A stretch of DNA of 64,000 nucleotides from the UHGV virus genome UHGV-1421865. The stretch is one strand, 5' to 3'. The notes under the pieces are model-generated. The model made no database searches. It had not been told where the DNA came from and saw nothing but the letters and a program-made list of their open reading frames with translations. Each line of letters opens with the position of its first letter. Position 1 is the first letter of the stretch. A program made the position numbers and the translations under genes. Positions 2,116 through 63,103 of the stretch are shown in pieces. This DNA comes from a virus.

Positions 2116-3624
2116 TTAGTCTTTATTAGGCGATACTACAAATCCAAAGCGGCTTATAATATCTCTATTGAGTAGCACCCGTGTAGACTTGTCTCTGTTG
2201 TCAACTAAGGCAAACTCTACATCCAATACTCTACGCGTTCCTATTTGGATAGACGGTATCTTAACAGTGATTCGTTTTTCTCGGTTTCTACTAATCTCAC
2301 CAGATTTCTCGAATGTATAATCTTCACCGTCGATTGTAACGACCACTTCAGTACCGTTCACTTTTAATTTATCATAACAAATTGTCGATATATCGTCACT
2401 ACCTGTACTTAGTTGTGCGTTTGTTGATAATACATTAGTATCCTCCAGAGTAGTAACATCTATATCACATAAGTACGGTACAGTTTTGGTTGTATATGCC
2501 AGTCCGCTTGCATCATTGATACTATCCAGCAATAACTTAAAGAAATTAAGCCCCATCGCTTCAGAAATACCTTCGGTACCAGGACTCATATTGTATTCTA
2601 ACACAACATTATCACCGATTTCCTTATTAGAACCTTTTACTAAGGGCATAATATCGACAGCGCACCAAGGCATACCGGATATTTTAGCGACTTTCTTAGC
2701 AATTTCCTCTTGTTCTTTTGTTAATACAACATGTTCTACTTTCGCTCCCAACGATACATTACTTCTGAAGTCACCTTTACCCAACATCACGCGTTTCATT
2801 GCACCGAGAATAATTTGACGACCGTGCAATGTAATTACATGTACTCTGATGTCACCACCGTCACCTTCTTCTTTTTTCTGAATAAGCAACTCTATTTCTG
2901 GATCCACATCGAATACCGCTTGTAATACCGGTAGGATATTCGTACCGTTCAACATAAATACACCGACACCACCATGACCACTTAATGTTTTTACAACATA
3001 TTCGAATTTTTCATCTTGCTTTTCATCTTCACCGACATTAGGATAAATCTCTACAAGTTTTTCATACAACGATTTCTTACCCTCCCTTATATCATCAGCT
3101 GTTAATAAAGCAAAACGAGGTTGAGGGATATTATACTTATCTAATAAAACACTAGAACTGTATTTATTTGACGCGATACGACCTTTGTCGATAGGGTTAA
3201 TAACATAAAAACCACGGTCTTGTAGTAGTTCTATTATATTAGCGCATTCTTCGTTAAATAACGTACTTAAACGTGCTATTACAATAGTATCGGTATTAGA
3301 CTTATCTGTTACAGTAAATTTATTATTCTCATCAAAAATAATGATATTACCATTACTAAGCTGTTTATACCTCACACTATTTGTCTTGAACATCTGTAAA
3401 ACAGTAGAGGTATTCTTTATAGCATCACACAAATTAGCTAGTGTTTTATCTTCTAAACAATCTGTTGACGCACCAAACAATAAAATGTTCTTAAAGAAAT
3501 AGTTGTCTTTAGATTTACCAAACGAGGTAACTTCATTCTCATCTTTAGCCTCGTGAATCTGCCTATCCTTTAAGTAACGTTTTTGAACTACATCTTGCAA
3601 TGATAAAATATAATTTGAGTTCAT
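2116..3624 (-). CDS. RimK-type ATP-grasp ligase (alpha-L-glutamate ligase-like) fused to a C-terminal DUF785 retropepsin-like domain.
   Basis: ATP-grasp motifs VVKTLSGHGGVGVF, IQKKEEGDGGDIRV and GDFRSNVSLGA (compare RimK DFRSN.H.GG). The C-terminal ~140 aa resemble the RimK-associated protease domain, with STGS at the position of the catalytic DTGA. Confidence 0.7.
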   Translation of the reverse strand: MNSNYILSLQDVVQKRYLKDRQIHEAKDENEVTSFGKSKDNYFFKNILLFGASTDCLEDKTLANLCDAIKNTSTVLQMFKTNSVRYKQLSNGNIIIFDENNKFTVTDKSNTDTIVIARLSTLFNEECANIIELLQDRGFYVINPIDKGRIASNKYSSSVLLDKYNIPQPRFALLTADDIREGKKSLYEKLVEIYPNVGEDEKQDEKFEYVVKTLSGHGGVGVFMLNGTNILPVLQAVFDVDPEIELLIQKKEEGDGGDIRVHVITLHGRQIILGAMKRVMLGKGDFRSNVSLGAKVEHVVLTKEQEEIAKKVAKISGMPWCAVDIMPLVKGSNKEIGDNVVLEYNMSPGTEGISEAMGLNFFKLLLDSINDASGLAYTTKTVPYLCDIDVTTLEDTNVLSTNAQLSTGSDDISTICYDKLKVNGTEVVVTIDGEDYTFEKSGEISRNREKRITVKIPSIQIGTRRVLDVEFALVDNRDKSTRVLLNRDIISRFGFVVSPNKD

Positions 3625-4363: not shown

Positions 4364-6034
4364 TTATACAAAATTTATTGTTACAGCATCCATTGTAATG
4401 CTGTCGTATTTATGTTCTCTGTTGTTTTTGTTATAATAGTATCGTATAGAACCGGTGATAAGGGGAATTCTAAGATCGGAATCCAGTTCGATGTTACCGG
4501 ACATATCGAGTCCTACTTGTTTTGACGGCTCGTAGGCTCTTTTATACGGTACATATTTTTCTGTCCCGTTAACAAATTCTTTCTTATATAAAGTATAATA
4601 TCCGTCTCTGTACGCCTTTTCGTTATCGTCGCTGATGATGTCTACCACTATCGACTCCACACCGTTTATACCGGAAAGTTCTTTTATAATATCGCTCTTG
4701 ACAATCTTTCGCGTATTGGTAAGCCGTTTCGACAGGTACTGTGCTAGACTTGTCTTTACCGACTGTTCTATTGTTTTTTTATAGTTATTGTTTTTAGCCT
4801 TTATATAGAACACCAACGCATATTTGCTTATAATAGGCTCTATGATGTTTATAGTAGTACCTGCAAAGGACCTGTTTGAGTTTTTTAAGGTGGTTTTAAT
4901 CTGTTCTTGTTCGCTATTAGATAATAGTATATCTTTATGAGACAAATCAAAATAATTGGTTCTTTTTTTGTACAATTCTTTGAGGTTTCTGGTTAGTATA
5001 CAGTTGACTACCATAGAGTTGTACTCACTCCATATCTTGGTGTACCCTATAAAGGAGAATCTCGACAAAAAGAGTTTGAAATTATCTGGTGTTGCCAGTA
5101 CGCTACTACGAGAGTTTTTACCCACCATATTACGAACAAAATTGATACTTTCTGCGTTACTACCGCCGGCGATAACGTTATTTACCGTTATATTAACATA
5201 CTCGTTCGGATTGACAGAATTACCGTACGCGTCGACAACATAGTCTCGGAACATCAGTCGTGCGTTTTGTAACGTGATATTTCCTAGTATTCCCGAATGT
5301 GTTAAATAACGAACCCCGACGGTCTGCCCTTCTCTTAACTGCGTACCATGGACGTTATTACCGAACTGAATCGTTATCTCGTTATTAAAACCGACGGTGA
5401 CGATGTAACTGTTACCAGACAGATCATAAAAGTTCTGTACCGGTGACCATAGTTCGTTGTCGACACGGACTTCGATATAGTCTTTGTCGAACAGTTCGGG
5501 TGTCGTTATATTAAATTGTTCTAACGGTTTTCCTTCCGACACAAAATTAGCATGGTTGAACTGCCCCTGTAATACCTTCAGTTCATGGTTGATGATAGGC
5601 TTCGATACGTCGATAACATAGTACTCTGAATTGATAACTGTATTATATAACAACCCAGTGTTCGGATCCTGTAACAAACAACCGTTCGGAATGTATATCT
5701 TAGACGATTTAGTACTCAATCCGTTATTGACTTCTACCTGCATCGTAACCGTCCCGACAGCGGCTGTACCGTAGCTCGGTTCGTAGCCGGATAACGTTGC
5801 TAAGTTATATATAGATTTCTTACGTCGCGCGGTGTATATATTCTGTTCCGACAACGCGTCTTCTATATAAAACATGATATTTTGCATCACACCTTTTATA
5901 CCGTCGAAAATGACAGTAAATACTTGACTGTGCCCGTACGGTATATTTAACGACGCAAACGTCTTCGACAAATAGGTCCGGACCGTCTCGTCGAACCGAT
6001 TAAAAGACGTTTCTATTGTTTTGAATAGTTTCAT
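4364..6034 (-). CDS. Hypothetical protein, 556 aa; possibly structural.
   Basis: Long uninterrupted ORF with an ATG start and codon usage matching its neighbours; no recognisable motif. Confidence 0.6.
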   Translation of the reverse strand: MKLFKTIETSFNRFDETVRTYLSKTFASLNIPYGHSQVFTVIFDGIKGVMQNIMFYIEDALSEQNIYTARRKKSIYNLATLSGYEPSYGTAAVGTVTMQVEVNNGLSTKSSKIYIPNGCLLQDPNTGLLYNTVINSEYYVIDVSKPIINHELKVLQGQFNHANFVSEGKPLEQFNITTPELFDKDYIEVRVDNELWSPVQNFYDLSGNSYIVTVGFNNEITIQFGNNVHGTQLREGQTVGVRYLTHSGILGNITLQNARLMFRDYVVDAYGNSVNPNEYVNITVNNVIAGGSNAESINFVRNMVGKNSRSSVLATPDNFKLFLSRFSFIGYTKIWSEYNSMVVNCILTRNLKELYKKRTNYFDLSHKDILLSNSEQEQIKTTLKNSNRSFAGTTINIIEPIISKYALVFYIKAKNNNYKKTIEQSVKTSLAQYLSKRLTNTRKIVKSDIIKELSGINGVESIVVDIISDDNEKAYRDGYYTLYKKEFVNGTEKYVPYKRAYEPSKQVGLDMSGNIELDSDLRIPLITGSIRYYYNKNNREHKYDSITMDAVTINFV

Positions 6035-6078: not shown

Positions 6079-6180
6079 CTGTGACGCACGATTTTTCTTT
6101 GACCTTAGAGTACCAAGATCAACACATTTGAGTGCGTCAGAGAGCCTAAAAAGTGCCAAAGAATCGATTCTATGTTGCAC
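6079..6180. repeat. Conserved intergenic structured palindromic element, copy 1 (plus form).
   Basis: gtgacgcacgatttttctttgaccttagagtaccaagatcaacacatttgagtgcgtcagagagcctaaaaagtgcc. Outer inverted repeat gacgcac/gtgcgtc. Confidence 0.8.
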
Positions 6181-6226
6181 ATACTAGTACACATAACAAA
6201 TATAGACTGATACAGACTGTAAAAGA

Positions 6227-6571
6227 CTATCTAAACTGATACTGACGTTCACCTTCGGTATCTGTTTTTTCGTCGTAGATGTTTATTATAACGTGATATA
6301 TACTGCGATAGTCGCCGTCGAGTAGTTTGACTTCTACGCTATGCTTCATCTGTGACAGATAAAAAGTGTCTTTAATATGTTCTTTAATGTATTCTTCGAC
6401 GCGTGTCGTAGACGGATTCATGTCCCAGAGAAATTGATCGAAGTTGGTACCGAACTGCGGTTCTCCTATCAGCTCTGTATTTTCTGTATTAAATAACATA
6501 TCTAGTTCTTGTAGGGCAGCGTCTAATTCCGACGTCAAGAACACTCTACTGTCTATGGCTAAATCCAACAT
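6227..6571 (-). CDS. Hypothetical protein, 114 aa.
   Basis: ORF with ATG start, packed tightly against the 6580..8487 gene. Confidence 0.5.
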   Translation of the reverse strand: MLDLAIDSRVFLTSELDAALQELDMLFNTENTELIGEPQFGTNFDQFLWDMNPSTTRVEEYIKEHIKDTFYLSQMKHSVEVKLLDGDYRSIYHVIINIYDEKTDTEGERQYQFR

Positions 6572-6579
6572 TGTTTTTA

Positions 6580-8487
6580 TTATATAGATTGATTGATAGA
6601 ATACGTACCGGATGAAAGATATGTATCGTCGTCTACTATGATGTCGAAGACACCCGAAATGTCGACTATATCGCTTGCCTTTATCTTAAATATAACAAAC
6701 GATTCGTTTCGTCCGATTTCTTTGTACTCTTTACCTCCGATACTGATACAAAATAGGTCTACCTTTGTCATATAGTTACCTAAATTGATACCTATATTCT
6801 GTTCTATGCGGGGACGAAGATTGATATGCTGTAAGTTTTGTACTTTATAGAATATCGGCTTATAAAGTATCTGTTTGTCTAAATTGTTGTTTATAATAGA
6901 CTGTTTAGTACTACACTCGCTGTCTACATTAGGATCTACGATATGACAGTTTAATTTATCTATAAATTTGAATTTAGATGCGTCTTGTATTTCCATGTCG
7001 GATTGAATATGAATATGTTGTTTTTGTGACGTCACAATGTACTTGTACCATTCGTCTGTTATAATAACGTCGTTGGAATTTATCACAGTACCGGTATATC
7101 GGTCTACAAAAGCGACTCGGCATACAAGGAACGCCGGTTTTTGTTTCCACGACTTAAATATGTTATATAAAGGAAAACTAAATGACGACAGGCTACTTAA
7201 ATCACTATTTTCGTTACGTGAATAGACAATGTTTTTATATAGTCGATCGGTTGCTATTTCGATGCGATAACCCAGGAACAGTTCGTCTGTATGCAGCGAT
7301 GCTTCGTACTCTTCTCTTATAACACTCTTTCGCATCTCCTTATATAACTCTAATGTCTTGTTATCGTCTAAAATCCATTTATAGATAAGGTTGTTTCGTT
7401 TGATATGAACATAGTAGTCTATGAGTTGCTGTTTGTCTGTTTCTGTTATAGTAGTAATAGCGTCTACGTCGGCGTACATGTCGTCTACTATGCGTTCTTT
7501 AGAATATACTTCATATTCCGATTCTGTGACACAAAAATGGTACTTGTACGCTTCCAACAAACCGCCGTCGGTACGAGGGAATTTATCGTAAGAATGATTA
7601 AAGTTACTTATAATAGACACTTCTCCGTTTTCAAACCCTAATTTAGACGTTAGTTCGAATCGATTTGTATCGGCTAAAACACAAGTACCGACACCTACGG
7701 TATCGTCTGTTTCGTACCTGTTTTCGTCTACCGTTCTGTACGGTAATAGTGTTATTGTTATATTATAAGGCGATCTGTGTTTTCGTTTAAGATATTGCTT
7801 TGTGTATATCGTATTATCGTCGTACTGTTCCGACACTATTTTGTACGGGTATTCGAACAGATTCATGCTAATAAACTGTTTATTACCCAATATAGTAGAT
7901 ACTTTATTGACAAAACCGGATTGCTTATTGAACGAATTAAAACGAATAAGTGTAGTATCATAAATCCAACCGGACAGTAAATCGTCTAAATCCGGTATGT
8001 CGACATAACTGTATTCGGAATAAGATTTGTTATAAAGAGAATGCTGTGTTTTCAGTTCCGTCTCCGACGCCGTATTTAGTTGATTTACTTTATATAAACC
8101 AAGATGGATTTTGATACCGTTTATATAAGAGGTAATGTGTACAATTTTAGGTACGTCGACGTCTGTTATAGGGTGGTAGATCTTGATTCTTCGTGTTCGT
8201 ACTTTCTTTGTCAGCATCTTGTCCTCTTGCCGTGTGTAGATAGGAGACGATTCCAGTTCGTAGTTGACAAATTCGGTCTTATCTGTACTATATAAACGGT
8301 TATTGTTTTGTACCGGGTACAGTTCTTGCTCTATAGACGAAGCTACAATAAACAAATCGGTGTCGTTAAGTACTTTATTTTTATAGTCGACAGAGCGTAT
8401 AACATTAAACGTATCGTAACGCTCCGAGTCATCGACTTCTAATTTATACGAATACGACCCTAATTGAACGTTGTATATCTTGCCCAT
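6580..8487 (-). CDS. Hypothetical protein, 635 aa.
   Basis: Long ORF with ATG start. Confidence 0.6.
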   Translation of the reverse strand: MGKIYNVQLGSYSYKLEVDDSERYDTFNVIRSVDYKNKVLNDTDLFIVASSIEQELYPVQNNNRLYSTDKTEFVNYELESSPIYTRQEDKMLTKKVRTRRIKIYHPITDVDVPKIVHITSYINGIKIHLGLYKVNQLNTASETELKTQHSLYNKSYSEYSYVDIPDLDDLLSGWIYDTTLIRFNSFNKQSGFVNKVSTILGNKQFISMNLFEYPYKIVSEQYDDNTIYTKQYLKRKHRSPYNITITLLPYRTVDENRYETDDTVGVGTCVLADTNRFELTSKLGFENGEVSIISNFNHSYDKFPRTDGGLLEAYKYHFCVTESEYEVYSKERIVDDMYADVDAITTITETDKQQLIDYYVHIKRNNLIYKWILDDNKTLELYKEMRKSVIREEYEASLHTDELFLGYRIEIATDRLYKNIVYSRNENSDLSSLSSFSFPLYNIFKSWKQKPAFLVCRVAFVDRYTGTVINSNDVIITDEWYKYIVTSQKQHIHIQSDMEIQDASKFKFIDKLNCHIVDPNVDSECSTKQSIINNNLDKQILYKPIFYKVQNLQHINLRPRIEQNIGINLGNYMTKVDLFCISIGGKEYKEIGRNESFVIFKIKASDIVDISGVFDIIVDDDTYLSSGTYSINQSI

Positions 8488-8599
8488 GTGCAGTTATTGT
8501 CTCTTTATATATGAAAATCCCATGTCTCTACATTGATTTTTGTCTTCAAATGTACTATATTTTAACTACGAACAAGAAAATAAACAACAGCATACTACA

Positions 8600-8866
8600 A
8601 TGGAACAAACAAAAACATATCAAACAGCTATTCTGACAGCCCTTAAACGTCTACAAGAACAGTGCGTAGACACAAATCCTGAACTTTATTCTATTGTAGA
8701 AGAATTTGAACGGTTGTACGATGTGGAAAACAGCACTTTCGGTAGCCTCTATCTACTGAATTTGGATCTCTATACGACACTCGTTATAACAGAAGATGTA
8801 GAGCTCCAACCCTACATTAGCATTCTTATCGATATTATTGAGAATTTCCCTACATTTTTCTCTTAA
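8600..8866 (+). CDS. Hypothetical small protein.
   Basis: ATG at 8600 (MEQTKTYQTAILTALKRLQEQ..). The track start at 8540 is a TTG. Confidence 0.35.
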   Translation: MEQTKTYQTAILTALKRLQEQCVDTNPELYSIVEEFERLYDVENSTFGSLYLLNLDLYTTLVITEDVELQPYISILIDIIENFPTFFS

Positions 8867-8931
8867 GAAAAGATGCTAATCTGGGGTCGTACGGGATTTT
8901 TACGTATAACAGATACGAACAAGAACAATAT

Positions 8932-9636
8932 ATGAACAAAAGATACAAATTTCAGGTCGGCGATATTATCGCTTTTAAGTTCATGGGGCTTAGATTTAAG
9001 TTCCGTGTAGTGCCGCAATTCGAGTATTTCTTGCCAAGAATGTGCGATTATTGGGATATTTCGGATTCCACACCGATTACTTTTACCGGTTTGAAGTTGG
9101 AGTATGTGTCTAAACGTCGGGGTGAATTACCCCGTGATGTAATCGGTATGTACTATCCCGAGCTTACCGACTTAGGTTCAACCTGTTATTGTATTTTGAA
9201 CAACAGTGAAGATTTCGACTTTTGGACGGCGTTGATGCGATTTACCCACCACGGTATCATTAAAAACCTTACTATTTATACATTAGGCGATCGTCCTGTT
9301 CGTTATAACAACAACCGAGTGTGTAAAGTAGTGAACACAAAAGCACCTTTTAGAAATAGTGTCGGCACTATTAAGTCTAAATCAGTGCCTGTATCGAAAG
9401 AGTGGCATCTAAATAATGCTACTAATATAGATGATGTACTTGCTGCTATTAAAGGTACTCTTATCAAATCCGCCGGTTTTGGAGGGGACGATTATAGTAC
9501 GCAGTTTAGTTCTGCTACAACTACACAAGACATAGTAGACAGTCCATACAAGTTGACAACAGACATATATACAGAAGTACTTGAAAACTTATTAGTACAG
9601 TTGTATAGTATACTTTCAAAAGCACCTCCTGTATAA
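8932..9636 (+). CDS. Hypothetical protein, 234 aa.
   Basis: ORF with ATG start. Confidence 0.5.
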   Translation: MNKRYKFQVGDIIAFKFMGLRFKFRVVPQFEYFLPRMCDYWDISDSTPITFTGLKLEYVSKRRGELPRDVIGMYYPELTDLGSTCYCILNNSEDFDFWTALMRFTHHGIIKNLTIYTLGDRPVRYNNNRVCKVVNTKAPFRNSVGTIKSKSVPVSKEWHLNNATNIDDVLAAIKGTLIKSAGFGGDDYSTQFSSATTTQDIVDSPYKLTTDIYTEVLENLLVQLYSILSKAPPV

Positions 9637-9639
9637 CGT

Positions 9640-11110
9640 GATAGCGTCATTAAACATTGAATATCAAGGAGATAATAAGTAGATACAAAATGACCAAACA
9701 GTTGTATAGTTTAAGAAGAAAATAAAGAAAGATGTATTTAACTGAAAAGCATATTATCAAACGAACGCACCCATTCTACAATGAGTGTGATAAGTTATGT
9801 TTTCAGTCAAAAAACATCTACAATCAAGGACTGTACAATGTAAGACAACACTACTTTAATACAAAGAAATATCTAAATTATTATGGAAATTATCACTTAA
9901 CCAAAACTCAGGAATGTTATGATTACCTTCCAACGAGAGTATTTTGTCAAACGTTAAAGCATGTTGATATGGTTTTCAAATCATTTTTCGCATTGCTTAA
10001 AAACAAAACTGTAAAGAATAGCCTACCAAAATACCTTGACAAGGTGAATGGTCGCTATGTAGCAACATTTATAAAGCAAGCAATAGGTTTAGGACAGTTT
10101 AAGAAAACGGGTAAACTACACTTATCACAAACAGATGTATACATATCAACAAAACTAACAGATTTTAGTTCTTTGAAAGAAGTTCGTATTGTTCCAAGGA
10201 TACATCATTATGTTATTGAAGTCGTTTATCAAGTGAAAGAAAAGACGCATTGTGATAATGGAAAGTATGCTGCCATTGACCTTGGATTAAACAATTTGGC
10301 AACAGTAGCATTTAATGATGGCTCAAAACCACTCATTGTTAATGGTAGACCCATTAAATCCATCAACCAATACTACAACAAAAAGAAGGCTCAATACCAA
10401 TCAAGGCTTAAAGGAAACAAACGAAGAAGCCAAACTATATGTACATTAACTAATAAGCGTAATAACAAGGTGACTGATTACTTGCATAAGGCAAGCCGAT
10501 TGTTGGTGAATCAATTAGTTTCGCAAGGAATAACCACATTGGTTATTGGTAAAAACAAAAATATGAAACAAGACATCAACATTGGCAAAGTGAATAATCA
10601 GAATTTTGTTCAGCTTCCCATAATGCGTTTTGCTGATTTAATGAAATACAAGTGTGAACTTGAAGGCATTAAAGTTTTGTTCAATGAGGAAAGTTACACA
10701 TCGAAGTGTTCCTTTTTAGACGGTGAACCCATTTGTAAACATGACAAATATATGGGTAAGCGTGTAAAAAGAGGTTTGTTCGTTTCACAGAACGGTATTA
10801 AGATTAACGCTGATGTTAATGCTGCATATAATATACTGATAAAAGCAATCCCAAATGCTTTTGCAGACGGGATAGAGGGTGTTGTAGTTCACCCATTGGT
10901 ATTAACCATAAAGAAATAATATATTATTTCATACTATTTCACGCTTATATCAGTCGAACTACAAACCTTCGACACAGCATTTGATATGCTGAGCAAAAAA
11001 GATACAATAAAAACCTACAAAGTGAATGTCGCGAAAGACGACAACACCTTTATCGATGATTTCCATGACACTATACTAGATCTTGTCAAACCCTAACCAA
11101 CCTACACATC
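9640..11110 (+). mobile_element. Probable solo IS200/IS605-type (IS1341-like) element carrying tnpB; ends not defined.
   Basis: tnpB is flanked by about 95 bp upstream and about 260 bp downstream of non-coding DNA, which could hold the LE/RE and an omega-RNA. A small hairpin cagcatttgatatgctg lies at about 10973-10989. Boundaries are inferred only. Confidence 0.4.
9732..10919 (+). CDS. tnpB: IS200/IS605-family TnpB (OrfB) RNA-guided nuclease-like transposon protein.
   Basis: 395 aa. The C-terminus has a Zn-finger-like region (C..C..C spacing in KCSFLDGEPICKHDKYMGKRV) followed by ADVNAAYNILIKA, the hallmark TnpB RuvC-III motif. N-terminal region typical of OrfB. No tnpA nearby. Confidence 0.8.
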   Translation: MYLTEKHIIKRTHPFYNECDKLCFQSKNIYNQGLYNVRQHYFNTKKYLNYYGNYHLTKTQECYDYLPTRVFCQTLKHVDMVFKSFFALLKNKTVKNSLPKYLDKVNGRYVATFIKQAIGLGQFKKTGKLHLSQTDVYISTKLTDFSSLKEVRIVPRIHHYVIEVVYQVKEKTHCDNGKYAAIDLGLNNLATVAFNDGSKPLIVNGRPIKSINQYYNKKKAQYQSRLKGNKRRSQTICTLTNKRNNKVTDYLHKASRLLVNQLVSQGITTLVIGKNKNMKQDINIGKVNNQNFVQLPIMRFADLMKYKCELEGIKVLFNEESYTSKCSFLDGEPICKHDKYMGKRVKRGLFVSQNGIKINADVNAAYNILIKAIPNAFADGIEGVVVHPLVLTIKK

Positions 11111-11182
11111 GCTTAGTAACGTACGTTGTTCTTTGAAGATCGTTAAAATAGATTATTATAAGAATAATATACGTAACAATAA

Positions 11183-11989
11183 ATGGATTTTGGGGTAGCA
11201 CTAAAGATATTAGATAAATACGGGCTGGAAGGTATAGCCTTATGTATAATTGCAGCGTTGATTTTTTACGGTGGGAAATGGGTACATACCAAGATAAGCG
11301 GTTCAATAACGACAACTATTCAACGACAGAACGATACCCTATCAAATAGCATAAAGGACTTATCTGTATCTTTAGCTACTGCGATGGTAGACAGAGAACA
11401 GTTTTTGATAAATGCCGTTGCCGAACAGAACAAGCACATGGTAGAATATCTCGTTAAACGAGACAATATCAAAAAAGACACACACGATACATTACTCGAA
11501 GAACGGCTGAAGAATACAGAGAACATCGAGCACAGACTGAACGACTTACTGAACTATTATCACTGTGATAGAATTCTACTGTACGAATTCCATAACTCGC
11601 TACAGAATTTATCGGGTATTCCGTTTGCGCGATTCTCTTGTAATTACGGTCGGCCGGCACCGGGTATTGTTTCGGTAAAACATAAATTACAGAATATCCC
11701 TTTCAGTACAATTAACACAGTAGTTCAGGACATAATGGAATCACCGGATTCGACAACATCGAATGTATGGTATAATGTGTCAGACTTAGCTATCAAGAAT
11801 CCGGATCTTGCACAGCTATTAACGTCTAACGGTGTGAAGTCGGTATTATTCAAGGGTCTGTACGGTAAGAACAATAATATGATCGGTCTTATCTCGATGG
11901 AATACATCAAACATCCTCAAGATATAAATATATCGTACACTAAACTATTGATTGAGGCATCTAAGATTGAGTCAATGCTCACCGCTTGA
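11183..11989 (+). CDS. Type-II membrane protein, 268 aa; possible T4 t-type holin given its architecture and position just upstream of the endolysin.
   Basis: Single N-terminal TM segment (GIALCIIAALIFYGG) and a large C-terminal domain. Its stop overlaps the endolysin start region. Confidence 0.45.
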   Translation: MDFGVALKILDKYGLEGIALCIIAALIFYGGKWVHTKISGSITTTIQRQNDTLSNSIKDLSVSLATAMVDREQFLINAVAEQNKHMVEYLVKRDNIKKDTHDTLLEERLKNTENIEHRLNDLLNYYHCDRILLYEFHNSLQNLSGIPFARFSCNYGRPAPGIVSVKHKLQNIPFSTINTVVQDIMESPDSTTSNVWYNVSDLAIKNPDLAQLLTSNGVKSVLFKGLYGKNNNMIGLISMEYIKHPQDINISYTKLLIEASKIESMLTA

Positions 11990-12033
11990 CAGTCCAATAC
12001 AGACTATCACAGTACAACGCAGACAACATAAGT

Positions 12034-12861
12034 ATGATCAACACAGCCTCAACAAGTCTCAACAAGCCCCCCCAAGACCAACATAAACCAGTACAGCCAG
12101 ATCAAGTATTAGAAGGTCTCGACGATTCAGAACGTCTTGTGTACCAACTACGGTCAGTACAGATGGATTTATTGAAGTCATGTATAGAGGGTTTCTCGTC
12201 TGAACAAATGGATGACGGTCATGCAGGTATCGACTACATCAACTATGCCGCTACTATGCCGATGGGCAGCGCTGAATTAGGTATCGATTCGTTATCAGAA
12301 TTTACTAACTATAACGGTTCTATACCTACTAACAAAGTCGCCGCAGCACTTAAAGTACCTAAACAATATAGTAACCGACTAGCGGCGTCGATAGCGATGC
12401 TCGACAAGTATGCACCTCAACTTGGCCTGAATAGTACAGGTAAGGTGTTATTGTTAGCACAGTTCGCTCACGAAAGCGGTAATTTCCAATTCTTTAAGGA
12501 AATAGGTGGCGCTGGTCGAAGCTACGGTCAACCGAAAGGTCCTTATGGTAAGCGATACTACGGACGAGGTCCGATACAAGTAACCCACGATTATAATTAT
12601 AAGGATATATACGAAAAGGCATTCCCGCAAATGGGACTGTCACAGTACAATATCTATGCTAATCCGGACCTGTGTGAAACAAACGACGTTATCGCTATTG
12701 CAGCAACCTTAGGATTTCTAATGTTGAACAAACGAGTCATAGAAGCCGCTAATTCTGGTGACATTAGAAAGACTACACGATATATCAACGGCGGACAAAA
12801 CGGTCTCGACGATCGTATAAAAAAGACTGGGCAGATCATATCGGCGCTGTCGACGACTTGA
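12034..12861 (+). CDS. Glycoside hydrolase family 19 (chitinase-like) endolysin.
   Basis: LLAQFAHESGNFQFFKEIG...YYGRGPIQVTHDYNYKD...INGGQNGLDDR matches the GH19 catalytic core (HESG..E.., GRG.IQ.T, INGG.NG). ATG at 12034; an alternative TTG at 11986 overlaps the upstream stop. Confidence 0.8.
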   Translation: MINTASTSLNKPPQDQHKPVQPDQVLEGLDDSERLVYQLRSVQMDLLKSCIEGFSSEQMDDGHAGIDYINYAATMPMGSAELGIDSLSEFTNYNGSIPTNKVAAALKVPKQYSNRLAASIAMLDKYAPQLGLNSTGKVLLLAQFAHESGNFQFFKEIGGAGRSYGQPKGPYGKRYYGRGPIQVTHDYNYKDIYEKAFPQMGLSQYNIYANPDLCETNDVIAIAATLGFLMLNKRVIEAANSGDIRKTTRYINGGQNGLDDRIKKTGQIISALSTT

Positions 12862-12986
12862 GTGACTGGGTGACGATTCGGAAGTTCAGTCAAATCAAAA
12901 GTAGTCTACTAGTAGTTTAGTAACGTCAATAGTAGTGTACCGATGATTCGGAAGTTCAGCCAAATAAGCAACAATAATAATATAAG

Positions 12987-25151: not shown

Positions 25152-26888
25152 ATGATTCATTTTAATTTCAATCCAGACGATTTACGTTTTCTATTCCTAA
25201 CGTACGACAATGTTAAAGACAAAACAAATTTGGGGCTGCTAAAGAAACATCTTAATTTAGTAGACCCTATTTGTTATTTGCCTACATGGGGTAATCGTCC
25301 GAAACAGACACGTGATTTCTTATTCGAATATGTCCGTAAAGAAGACAGTAAACATATCTTTTATTGTTCGTTCGGCCTATGGAACGAGGTACGTACTTTC
25401 TTTATAACACATAATATCGAATTTGACGGTCTCCTGGACAAACCGGAACTGTTCAAAACCACGTTAAAACATACCTTCGAAGAATTCAAAGATATAGTGC
25501 AAAGTTGGGGATTAAAGTACCCACCTAGACCGTACCAACTTGAAGCGGCGTACAAAGTCTTAGATTATCGTCGTAGTTTGTCGGAATTGCCGACCCGTGC
25601 CGGTAAAACATTGATTTCTTATATCATATTCCGCTACGGAATGGAATTCTTAGGTATTAAGAAAATTCTGATGATTGTACCGTCTATTTCGCTCGTGAAA
25701 CAGGGCTTTGCTGACTTTGCAGAATACGGTGAGTTCTTTAATACAGAATGTGTGTGGGCAGGTGGAAAATTAGTTAATTCTTCCAATTTAACAATAGGTA
25801 CATTCCAGAGTCTCATTGGGTATCTGGATCCGAAGTCAAAGAAATACAATCCACAGTTCTTTAATGATTACGATTGTATTTTTGTCGACGAAACACACCG
25901 TGCTACGGCAGAGCAAACGAAGACGATTATATCACAAGACTTTGTAAAGAACGTTAAACTGTTCTTCGGTATGTCCGGTACCTTACCGAAGCCTAAAACT
26001 ATCGAATGGTATTGTCTACAGTCTATCATTGGCTGTAAGATACAAAGTATCGAACCACGCGAACTGATGGACGCCGGTTTTGTCTCGAACATCGAAATCA
26101 ACCAGATCGTCTTAGACTATCAAGACAAAGAACGAGTAAAAGATCTGTATCTAAAATGTGCAGAATACACCTGTTCTAGTTTCGATACAGACGATGACGG
26201 TAACAAAATACCGCTGAGCGACCCACAAAATCAGATCATGTTCCGAAAGTCGCTACCGATAGGACTAGCACAGGTACGAGAGAAATACCTCACTAAACAA
26301 ATCCCGAAAAACGACTACATTTCTCTTATAAAAGGATATATTAAAGACAATGCCGGTACAAACAATCTCGTCGTAGAGAAATACCTTACACATTTCCTGG
26401 ACGAACGGATAAACTATCTTATAACAGACATCCTTCCCGACTGTAAATACAATACACTTATACTGGCTCACCATACAGAATATATCGGGCGGCTTTATAG
26501 TATATTAAAAGAACAATTTAAGGACCGCCATGTCTATATGATCACCGGCGCCACGAAGTCGAAAGAACGAGAAGCAATCAAACAGTCGCTAAAAGAACAC
26601 AACGATTGTATCTTAGTCGCGTCGTATGGTACGCTTTCTACCGGTATTACATTAGCTAATCTATGTTTCGGTGTACTAATGGAATCATTTAAGTCGCCGG
26701 TGGTGAACATGCAGTCGTTGGGTCGCGGACTTGGACTGTCAAAACTAAAAGACAAATACATTGTTTACGATATTATCGACAAATTTCCTAAAGAATTGTC
26801 TAATGCAATCTACCTCCAAGGCAAACAAAAACGAAAGCTGTACGACGAATACAGGTACCCTTATAACACGACTGTTGTAAAACTATAA
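25152..26888 (+). CDS. Superfamily-2 DEAD/DEAH-box helicase (UvsW/RecG-like class).
   Basis: Walker A LPTRAGKT, motif II FVDETHRA, motif III-like SGTLP, and a C-terminal helicase domain (LVASYGTLSTGI, QSLGRGLG). Confidence 0.75.
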   Translation: MIHFNFNPDDLRFLFLTYDNVKDKTNLGLLKKHLNLVDPICYLPTWGNRPKQTRDFLFEYVRKEDSKHIFYCSFGLWNEVRTFFITHNIEFDGLLDKPELFKTTLKHTFEEFKDIVQSWGLKYPPRPYQLEAAYKVLDYRRSLSELPTRAGKTLISYIIFRYGMEFLGIKKILMIVPSISLVKQGFADFAEYGEFFNTECVWAGGKLVNSSNLTIGTFQSLIGYLDPKSKKYNPQFFNDYDCIFVDETHRATAEQTKTIISQDFVKNVKLFFGMSGTLPKPKTIEWYCLQSIIGCKIQSIEPRELMDAGFVSNIEINQIVLDYQDKERVKDLYLKCAEYTCSSFDTDDDGNKIPLSDPQNQIMFRKSLPIGLAQVREKYLTKQIPKNDYISLIKGYIKDNAGTNNLVVEKYLTHFLDERINYLITDILPDCKYNTLILAHHTEYIGRLYSILKEQFKDRHVYMITGATKSKEREAIKQSLKEHNDCILVASYGTLSTGITLANLCFGVLMESFKSPVVNMQSLGRGLGLSKLKDKYIVYDIIDKFPKELSNAIYLQGKQKRKLYDEYRYPYNTTVVKL

Positions 26889-26990
26889 AAAATCTCCCCT
26901 CTGACGCACGATTTTTATCGTACCTTGGTACTACTAAGGTCGCTACATTTGAGTGCGCCAGAGGGCCTTAAAAGTGCCTTTACGTCGATT
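26889..26990. repeat. Conserved intergenic structured palindromic element, copy 2 (plus form).
   Basis: tctgacgcacgatttttatcgtaccttggtactactaaggtcgctacatttgagtgcgccagagggccttaaaagtgcctttacg. Confidence 0.85.
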
Positions 26991-27059
26991 CTATGTTTGT
27001 ACATGTCTATACGAAAAATAGAAACTGCCAAAATCAGCTTAAAAGTAGACCAAAAAGAA

Positions 27060-30965: not shown

Positions 30966-30989
30966 AAGTGCTATATTATGTGTGATTTG

Positions 30990-31125
30990 TAGAGTTTCTG
31001 TTTTGTATACTGACGTGTAAATATCTGACGTCCACATAAAGGCACTTTTAAGGCTCTCTAACGCACTCAAATGTACTTACCTTGGTACTACTAAGGTCAA
31101 ACAAAAATCGTGCGGTACAGGGCAA
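30990..31125. repeat. Conserved intergenic structured palindromic element, copy 3 (minus form, extended).
   Basis: Reverse complement of the consensus. Also contains the extended 5' segment gtttctgttttgtatactgacgtgtaaatat, which it shares with copy 5. Confidence 0.85.
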
Positions 31126-31150
31126 GTTTTGAACGTTTTGATTTATACTA

Positions 31151-38282: not shown

Positions 38283-38410
38283 ATAACGCACGATTTTTCT
38301 TTGACCTTGGTACTAGTAAGGCTGGCTGGTTTGGACACGATACAGGAGCTCTAAAGTGCCTTTACGGGCTTGTTATAGTTTGGTATACCAGTATACAAAA
38401 CAGAAACCGT
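38283..38410. repeat. Conserved intergenic structured palindromic element, copy 4 (plus form, divergent 3' half).
   Basis: ataacgcacgatttttctttgaccttggtactagtaagg...ctaaagtgcctttacgggc...gtatacaaaacagaaacc. Confidence 0.75.
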
Positions 38411-38442
38411 CAAAGTTGAACTAAAATAAGACTAAAAATGAC

Positions 38443-54836: not shown

Positions 54837-54877
54837 TCATTTCGGTCTGATTTTGTTGATTTTGTACAGTTTCTGTT

Positions 54878-55008
54878 TTGTGTACTGAGGTGTAAATATA
54901 TAACGTCCCCATAAAGGCACTTTTAAGGCTCTCTAACGCACTCAAATTAGTTGACCTTACCAACACCAAGGTCAAAGAAAAATCGTGCGTTAGAGTGGAG
55001 ATTTTACT
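54878..55008. repeat. Conserved intergenic structured palindromic element, copy 5 (minus form, extended).
   Basis: gtttctgttttgtgtactgaggtgtaaatatataacgtccccataaaggcacttttaaggctctctaacgcactcaaat..gaccttaccaacaccaaggtc..aaaaatcgtgcgttagag. Confidence 0.85.
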
Positions 55009-57207: not shown

Positions 57208-57285
57208 TTATACTTATATTGTATATAAATGATAATCCTTTCGTCTGCGTATTTACTATGTATACAAAACATTCAAAAACTTGCC

Positions 57286-57410
57286 CTCTAACGCACGATT
57301 TTTGTTGAGGCTTAGTAGTACCAAGGTAAGTGTATTTGAGTGCGTCAGAGAGCCTTAAAAGTGCCTTTATGGACGTGTCACGTATTTGTACGTCGGTGGG
57401 AAAAACACAA
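57286..57410. repeat. Conserved intergenic structured palindromic element, copy 6 (plus form).
   Basis: ctctaacgcacgatttttgttgaggcttagtagtaccaaggtaagtgtatttgagtgcgtcagagagccttaaaagtgcctttatggacgtg. Confidence 0.85.
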
Positions 57411-62835: not shown

Positions 62836-62969
62836 CTTTATCTTGTTTTATATACTTTATATAGTACATGATGTATACAAAATCAGTGCAATTTTGACGG
62901 TTTCTGTTTCGCATACTGGTATGTATAAACGTAGAATCGTAATAAAGCCACCATATTCGTCCTCTGTCG

Positions 62970-63025
62970 CGTCCGAATGGTCTAGCCTTGGTACTACTAA
63001 GCCTCAACAAAAATCGTGCGATAGA
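62970..63025. repeat. Conserved intergenic element, copy 7 (minus form, truncated to the inner hairpin half).
   Basis: gccttggtactactaagcctcaacaaaaatcgtgcgatagag. Identical over 28 nt to the inner hairpin of copy 6 (in reverse complement) but lacks the ccttaaaagtgcc arm. Confidence 0.7.
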
Positions 63026-63103
63026 GGAGAGATTTTCTCAAGTTTTTTAATGTTAACAAAAAGAACACTTGTACGGTTAGCTGTACAAGTGTTCTTTATA
63101 GTA

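Follow-up and report, generated by a model that had tools for sequence, protein, structure and literature searches.

Positions 9705 to 10938 of the 64,000-nt stretch of phage genome UHGV-1421865 analysed here (the window, numbered from its first letter) hold an intact tnpB gene and a predicted omega-RNA scaffold. Both lie in what is probably the non-autonomous remnant of an IS607-type insertion sequence (IS) that interrupts a thymidylate-kinase-like gene (Table 1). The phage setting, recognized in an earlier sequence-only reading of the locus, is confirmed by window genes for a portal protein, large terminase, baseplate wedge protein, helicase and endolysin. Contigs identical to the window, up to 223 kb in length, come from the human oral metagenome ERR589709. 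A megablast of positions 8500–12900 against INPHARED gave no match, and no close phage is present in that collection.

The 395-aa open reading frame (ORF) had been called tnpB on account of its RuvC-III motif, and a hidden Markov model search agreed, with TnpB profiles matched above the curated cutoff. The product matched NCBIfam NF040570, guided_TnpB, over residues 8–371 (1.2e-51, 176 bits, cutoff 100), Pfam OrfB_IS605 (PF01385; 5e-24, 85 bits), Pfam Cas12f1-like_TNB (PF07282; 6e-11, 43 bits) and PHROG 506 'transposase'. The motif NADVNAAYNILIKA occupies residues 359–372, in the stretch ...INADVNAAYNILIKA... (residues 358–372). Residue conservation was scored over 58 distinct TnpB relatives. 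RuvC-I D183 is kept in 57 of these, and G273, E320 and D361 are each found in all 58. A plain D...E...D triad had been put forward as the residues to check. The canonical RuvC-II Glu is however a Gly (G273), because 'VIGKN' of the window protein aligns opposite 'QMEDL' of AsCas12f; the invariant E320 is found instead, six residues ahead of C326, the first zinc-finger Cys position. Rearranged TnpBs and Fanzors have been reported to possess an alternative Glu six residues before the first zinc-finger Cys (PMC10691335, PMC13565253), and the predicted RuvC site, composed of D183, the alternative E320 and D361, is of this known 'RuvC-II rearranged' (RIIr) type. The RuvC-I motif reads I-D-L-G (D-hydrophobic-G) and not D-P-G. 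A zinc-finger-like segment had also been noted, and the TNB domain match is in keeping with it, but the finger is degenerate: in place of four Cys (CCCC) only C326 and C335 are present (conserved in 48/58 and 20/58 relatives, respectively) and the second pair is missing. Some RIIr branches are reported to be virus-specific, and zinc-finger loss is reported in some TnpB branches (PMC10691335). Foldseek searches with an AlphaFold model, built from a shallow alignment of 24 sequences with 69–92% identity, retrieved Cas12f, ISDra2 TnpB (entries 8H1J and 8EXA), ISFba1 TnpB and Fanzor2.

Comparison of the copies shows that tnpB is under purifying selection, with ratios of non-synonymous to synonymous substitution (dN/dS) of 0.10–0.13 against six other copies. 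Against the likewise tnpA-less copy of sister phage L088 there were 55 synonymous and 25 non-synonymous differences (dN/dS 0.10). Third-codon-position diversity was low in the first ~30 codons of tnpB (9732–9820; 0.18 versus 0.3–0.45 mid-gene), which hints at an extra constraint there, for instance from translation initiation, from an antisense element or from a regulatory RNA.

The limits of the element were set by comparison with other copies. At the DNA level, 12 IMG/VR copies and L088, L090, L091 and L092 resemble the window only within 9710/9728–10929/10940 and have unrelated flanks. TnpBs 69–94% identical to that of the window are encoded at twelve loci in IMG/VR and at several in metagenomes. 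On the 3' side all copies read ...AAAGAAATAA, a short palindrome and TTTCATACTCT, usually followed by T and then by complete divergence. This shared boundary places the element end at ~10938, 19 nt past the tnpB stop codon. GC content is ~0.30 inside the element and 0.38–0.44 in the flanks. The description of tnpB as 'solo' was upheld, as no tnpA is adjacent to it; a tblastn search of the 64-kb window with a relative's TnpA gave chance matches only, and left-end sequence was also not found there. A micro-ORF of 11 codons at 9690–9725 consists of the start of the kinase-like gene fused to a tnpA remnant. A reading of this micro-ORF as purely a tnpA remnant was rejected, since comparison with sister phage L085 assigns its first five codons to the kinase gene.

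Relatives with 69–91% identity lie in complete elements behind a serine-recombinase tnpA. In L001/L092, L005–L012 and L011, a co-oriented ORF of 189–191 aa precedes tnpB, with a Resolvase domain (Pfam 4e-18) and a match to PHROG 6620 'transposase'. Among relatives at 50–91% TnpB identity the TnpA has a Resolvase domain, and no Y1 (HUH) TnpA of the IS200/IS605 kind was seen. Across the fetched loci 29 of 94 tnpB copies have an adjacent tnpA match, mostly in closer relatives (at least 50% TnpB identity). The complete elements, mostly of 1,880 bp (1,860 in L008/L009 and 1,892 in L011), extend from G|TCT... to ...CATACTCT| and consist, in order, of the G|TCT left end, the serine-recombinase tnpA, tnpB and ...CATACTCT|T. 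In 13 of 14 copies the right end is followed by T, and G precedes the left-end TCT at 7/7 sites. In IS607 the right-flanking nucleotide is fixed and forms part of the RNA scaffold (PMC10711439). The first flanking nucleotide is likewise fixed here, which is the IS607 pattern, as opposed to the 4–5-nt motif and variable first flanking nucleotide of IS200/IS605. The termini lack inverted repeats, and the two ends, G|TCT... and ...CTCT|, share a short recombination core, as is typical of IS607. In the subfamily with 78% TnpB identity (L005–L012), the joined ends, TCATA-CTCT-TATGA, would form a plausible crossover site for the serine recombinase. The usual IS607 rule is one of GG termini and G-rich target-adjacent motifs (TAMs; PMC13565253); neither these nor integration at GG was found, the termini being TCT/CTCT with a single G before the left end. 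The serine-recombinase partner and the fixed base after the right end therefore identify the element as IS607-type and not IS200/IS605, the family to which it had been assigned earlier. The window copy is a derivative of this type and not an autonomous member, as only a 21-nt stub of tnpA is left. Loss of tnpA has taken varied forms: the left end is still present in L091 and L002, where the deletions are internal to tnpA, and is gone from the copies in the window, L088, L003 and L090. The idea that all tnpA-less copies are 5'-truncated by one-sided repair was ruled out by the retention of the left end in L091 and L002.

The predicted omega-RNA scaffold lies at ~10841–10938, with two of its hairpins clearly backed by compensatory changes. 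For this analysis, 35 non-redundant 3' regions were anchored on the AUAGAGG motif and pairs were counted on a 25-sequence alignment. Overall 75% of cells were paired, compared with 63% in shuffles (0/500 as high) and 36–46% when one strand was slid. Compensatory changes were found for four of the five pairs of helix 1 and for three pairs of helix 2, which was 99% paired. Helix 3 is less supported (54% of cells paired), probably owing to a misregister in the MAFFT alignment. The stem UCCC/GGGA of the window is elsewhere UCGGA/UCCGA, UACC/GGUA, UUCCG/CGGAA or GGGG/CCCU, which is compensatory, and in L016 the pairing change turns ..P....G.. of the protein into ..G....P.., a Pro/Gly swap. The minimum free energy fold of 10826–10937 contained the same hairpins and, spanning the stop codon, a fourth one (z = -2.9). 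A covariance model made from the alignment had a single match in the window, at 10841–10914, and the score of 84.5 bits was equal to that of complete elements. Third-codon-position diversity among eleven copies drops from ~0.36–0.42 to 0.13 over the last 35 tnpB codons. An Rfam scan of 9000–12000 (E <= 10) found neither RAGATH-18 nor any other matching family in the region, and its chance matches, a CRISPR-DR53-like one (minus strand, within the ORF) and a viral pseudoknot, were set aside. Sigma-70-like sites numbered 20 in the region against 13 expected, and TATAAT is confounded with conserved Tyr-Asn codons, so that the match beside the scaffold is only a hint of an internal omega-RNA promoter. 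The position of the predicted guide also follows from the published behaviour of IS607 TnpBs (PMC10711439). This guide has no second match in the 64-kb window. At most the guide, of ~20 nt, lies in the gap downstream of tnpB, where the omega-RNA had previously been sought. That placement is ~100 nt too far downstream, given that the copies share nothing past 10929–10940 and the covarying scaffold is inside the 3' end of the ORF.

Sister phages L085 and L088/L089 were located through a neighbouring gene of 268 aa downstream of tnpB; an IMG/VR search with the same gene yielded no relatives. L085 is 75–86% identical to the window, is without tnpB, and has an intact gene of 187 aa (5360–5923) that matches phrog_761, thymidylate kinase, at 4e-12. 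Blastn matches to L085 5771–6805 and to L095 begin exactly at window position 10944, with 74–75% identity. The gap 10920–11182, regarded earlier as non-coding, in fact includes at 10944–11096 the in-frame C-terminal 50 codons and stop of the disrupted phage gene. No similarity to L088 was found at 11097–11150, and from 11151 onwards lies conserved sequence that precedes the next gene and is 90% shared with L088. Between the two remnants of the kinase-like gene ~396 bp are missing. In the simplest history, a complete element would have entered the kinase-like gene, after which one deletion would have removed the left end, almost all of tnpA and the 5' part of the remaining kinase gene (~396 bp). 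The 5–8 nt at 10936–10943 are matched by nothing in the intact target gene or at the sister-phage junction, and a 10-nt tandem duplication was an imperfect fit as their source. A hairpin reported at ~10973–10989 does exist (cagcat-ttgat-atgctg), although its true position is 2 nt away, at 10975–10991. It sits within the kinase-like remnant and is not part of the omega-RNA, as it is unconserved in the intact homologues, being absent from L095 and from L085, where gttgcatttgacattctc does not form it. A long predicted hairpin (~11120–11182), with the motif gattattataagaaYaatata common to L085 and L088, precedes the 268-aa gene and is probably the control region of that gene and not part of the element.

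The view that this is a solo IS200/IS605 tnpB, with its right end and scaffold in 10920–11182 and the hairpin included, thereby becomes scarcely tenable. It could draw on the Pfam name OrfB_IS605, on a sub-threshold match to NCBIfam IS200_TnpB (38 bits, cutoff 425) and on the folding of the gap, which is better than that of shuffles (z = -3.2), but the gap is homologous to a sister-phage coding region and, further on, to the sequence ahead of the next gene, other copies share none of it, the hairpin is unconserved, the transposase of the relatives is a serine recombinase and Rfam is empty in the region.

Table 1. Coordinates of features in the window (element, interrupted gene, neighbouring site and dispersed repeat)
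Feature	Position	Strand	Remarks
Unoccupied 'site A'	8912–9035	+	Counterpart of the L088/L089 insertion site
Kinase-like gene, start	9690–9704	+	First five codons ATGACCAAACAGTTG (MTKQL); matches L085 (ATGACGAAACAGTTG) and L095; left junction of the element
Transposon remnant	9705–10938	+	~1.23 kb: tnpA stub, tnpB and right end; left end and most of tnpA missing
tnpA 3' remnant	9705–9725	+	TATAGTTTAAGAAGAAAATAA, reads ..YSLRRK*; aligns with ..ATGTACGGTTTACGAAGAAAAAA.. (..MYGLRRKK..), the TnpA C-terminus of L001, L005 and L092
tnpB	9732–10919	+	395 aa, intact; HMM matches; D183, alternative E320, D361; G273 at canonical RuvC-II Glu position
Sigma-70-like promoter match	10804–10832	+	TTAACG-17-TATAAT, 10/12 matches, just upstream of the scaffold
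Predicted omega-RNA scaffold	10841–10938	+	Four hairpins, mostly inside the tnpB 3' end (last ~80 nt of the ORF and ~19 nt past the stop)
Helix 1	10848–10852/10869–10873	+	Inner stem 10856–10858/10863–10865
Conserved AUAGAGG motif	10872–10878	+	Runs into helix 2
Helix 2	10877–10881/10890–10894	+	
Helix 3	10896–10900/10905–10909	+	
Helix 4	10913–10919/10924–10930	+	Spans the tnpB stop codon
Terminal motif CATACTATT	10930–10938	+	
Predicted guide	10939–10958	+	First ~20 nt past the right end; family-wide boundary ...CATACTCT(T)|variable flank
Kinase-like gene, 3' remnant	10944–11096	+	50 codons and stop, LISVELQTFDTAFDML...DLVKP*; blastn to L085 and L095
Hairpin of the sequence-only reading	10975–10991	+	Codons TAFDML of dead kinase sequence; outside the element
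Dispersed ~130-nt repeat	~6079–6198, 26879–27037, 38284–38428, 57266–57378	+	
Dispersed ~130-nt repeat	30971–31144, 54861–55005, 62890–63062	-	

Two of the sister phages, L088 and L089, are 86–93% identical to the window. In both, a full tnpB element with 93% identity lies 0.8 kb upstream of the window's site, where it replaces window 8912–8988, including the start of a 234-aa gene. The 46 nt adjoining the right end of the L088 element are identical to window 8990–9035, and the window therefore has a perfect match to the presumed guide of that element (~8992–9011). Identity at site A falls with distance (100%, 97%, 90% and then ~78–80%), which could reflect a co-conversion tract or merely conservation of the 234-aa gene at its N-terminus. 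At the site that is filled in the window, L088 and L089 have only a 98-nt stub (L088 5631–5728; L089 4669–4766), which contains no tnpB. The L088 stub scored 82.9 bits with the RNA model, like complete elements, and has one compensatory change, TGC..GCA to TAC..GTA. This orphan scaffold, 1 kb downstream of the full tnpB, could act as a second guide used in trans. Phages 75–93% identical thus differ in the presence of the element at two sites separated by 0.8 kb; sister phages are without it or have it at the other site, which supports the earlier suggestion of a selfish insertion. The sequence (G/A)(G/T)CT precedes both candidate target sites. Exact-pattern searches of IMG/VR for empty sites of full copies (L007 and L006 flanks) found none, and a metagenome scan with a 20-mer conserved in the kinase remnant found one more distant intact allele (L095) and otherwise chance matches.

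The tnpB lineage looks phage-resident. Relatives with at least 69% identity were found only on phage or metagenome contigs. More than 100 protein clusters at this level come from metagenome contigs, which reach 330 kb in length, and two variants occur together on some of these contigs. The best relative in 185,579 bacterial and archaeal species genomes was 47% identical. In L091, a 41-kb contig of a jumbo-phage lineage whose tnpB is found again on a 323-kb contig, a 529-aa ORF (6494–8083) directly follows the tnpA-defective tnpB; its Pfam match is to the Cas12f1-like TNB domain only, and it could be a larger TnpB/Cas12-like protein. A tnpB clade of 40% identity in IMG/VR (L044–L080) is without tnpA and occupies many sites on related viral contigs of ~60–110 kb. 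Its copies have a precise ...TATAATTACC| right boundary with a different flank each time, and it is apparently another transposase-free yet mobile phage tnpB lineage.

We put the probability that 9705–10938 is a non-autonomous remnant of a phage-resident IS607-type IS, with intact tnpB and omega-RNA and inserted in a thymidylate-kinase-like gene, at roughly 0.7. The expected mechanism is that a ribonucleoprotein forms, in which TnpB would bind the omega-RNA and cut DNA that carries a short adjacent motif and a guide match. It would act on related phages that co-infect the cell and whose insertion site is uninterrupted. With the genome that bears the element as template, recombinational repair would then maintain or spread it, and no transposase would be needed. 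Such 'non-restorative homing' has been raised as a theoretical possibility in a 2026 review (PMC13565253), and our literature search found no study that tests non-restorative TnpB homing in phages. Several observations weigh against this account. The right end in the window is CATACTATT instead of CATACTCTT, and is followed by 5–8 unexplained nt before host homology begins. The sister stub at the same site reads ...ACTCT|ATATCAGTCG, compared with ...ACTAT-TTCACGCTT-ATATCAGTCG in the window. With the altered right end and the extra 5–8 nt, the guide may therefore have lost its match to the ancestral empty allele. The searches turned up no empty site above 75% identity from which a TAM could be derived. 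The AlphaFold model (predicted local distance difference test score 63.6, with residues 320–395 below 50) is too poor to verify a position of E320 in the active site.

In a second explanation the locus is an inert relic: stranded, with its guide out of register and without activity, its tnpB merely undegraded and passively inherited. The missing left end and tnpA, the altered terminal motif with the extra nucleotides at 10936–10943, the decay of the L088 copy at the window's site to a 98-nt stub and the failure of any empty allele to turn up in close relatives would all be accommodated. It is nevertheless rather unlikely, as the ORF is full-length with all conserved catalytic positions kept, dN/dS is low even against the other tnpA-less copy, and the four RNA helices are intact, with a covariance model score equal to that of complete elements.

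Selection in the absence of a transposase could also be read as domestication, with TnpB kept by the phage as an RNA-guided weapon or regulator, for competitor exclusion or for TldR-like gene repression. The restriction of the clade to phages and the orphan scaffold with a second guide beside the full tnpB of L088 would suit this explanation. TldR is nuclease-dead, however, and the catalytic residues and C-terminus are kept here; nothing else in the 64-kb window matches the guide, and the site varies among sister phages with damage to a phage gene at each insertion, which is a parasite-like pattern. Domestication is thus judged improbable.

More tentatively, and with considerable doubt, the remnant may represent a phage-only tnpB lineage that persists and spreads without a transposase by RNA-guided 'non-restorative' homing and uses orphan scaffolds as extra guides. 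In this scheme a phage's nuclease would cut the empty site in a related phage, for example site A at 8990–9035, and the element would be copied in by repair. Orphan scaffolds such as that of L088 would supply extra guides to a tnpB elsewhere in the genome. If this were true, the two-guide stage would be reminiscent of a route to CRISPR arrays.

Among characterized systems, the IS607 family (IS607, IS1535, ISXfa1) is one of the closest. Shared features are a MerR-like/resolvase TnpA of 189–191 aa immediately upstream of tnpB in the relatives, ends with a short common core, no terminal inverted repeats and a fixed nucleotide after the right end, and a reRNA/omega-RNA that overlaps the 3' end of tnpB (PMC10711439). 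Unlike IS607, the element ends G|TCT...CTCT|T and not with GG at a GG target, no AGGAG/GAGGG G-rich motif is evident (PMC13565253), and both tnpA and the left end are missing from the window copy. IS607-type TnpBs guided by RAGATH-18 (ISFba1; PMC11061315) are similar in having ~390 aa and a structured 3' RNA, but the window scaffold is a different RNA. ISDra2/IS605 TnpB, with its omega-RNA the reference for OMEGA systems, belongs to the same fold family (Foldseek entries as above) and also has its scaffold in the 3' end of tnpB and its guide from the flank. It differs in its Y1 HUH transposase and single-strand 'peel and paste' transposition, canonical D-E-D triad, CCCC zinc finger and TTGAT TAM, and its sequence similarity to the window TnpB is weak (E about 1e-4).

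With RuvC-II-rearranged TnpBs (RIIr branches, Altae-Tran et al. 2023; 'TnpB2') the window protein shares Gly in place of the RuvC-II Glu, and with these and Fanzors an invariant alternative Glu six residues before the zinc-finger position; its own zinc finger is degenerate and it was not assignable to a specific branch. Pro-Fanzors and Fanzors are defined by RuvC-I D-P-G (PMC10711439), unlike the D-L-G of the window. TldR repressors have lost RuvC residues or are truncated at the C-terminus, and their guides match a promoter; they differ too, since the window TnpB is full length, has conserved catalytic positions and has a guide without another match in the window. The free-standing homing endonucleases of T-even phages (Seg, Mob) offer a parallel, as a nuclease gene is present or absent between conserved phage genes of close relatives and spread is expected during co-infection. 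Target recognition in the window would however be by an RNA guide and not by protein.

The locus is essentially an ordinary, well-documented case within known OMEGA logic. Its annotation is corrected here on four points, namely the family, the boundaries, the position of the omega-RNA and the identity of the gap. It adds a compact nuclease–scaffold pair, consisting of a 395-aa protein and a ~100-nt scaffold, with a rearranged active site and from an apparently phage-confined clade. Together with the neighbouring genomes, which offer an occupied site, an unoccupied one that matches a guide perfectly and a scaffold left without tnpB, it constitutes a natural test case for transposase-free homing.

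Other features of the window were also recorded. Beside the baseplate module is an unusual auxiliary gene, a 502-aa ORF on the minus strand (2116–3624) whose product has a RimK-like ATP-grasp domain (Pfam 9e-21), and two DUF285 genes (252–1446) lie near it. A dispersed repeat of ~130 nt, unrelated to tnpB, was found in at least seven places in the window (Table 1) and several times in sister contig L090. Its copies are apparently inter-ORF. They share an invariant CGCACGATTTTT, an inner hairpin CCTTAGTAGTACCAAGG and an outer ACGCAC...GTGCGT pairing, and the repeat could be a phage promoter/terminator cassette or a small structured RNA.

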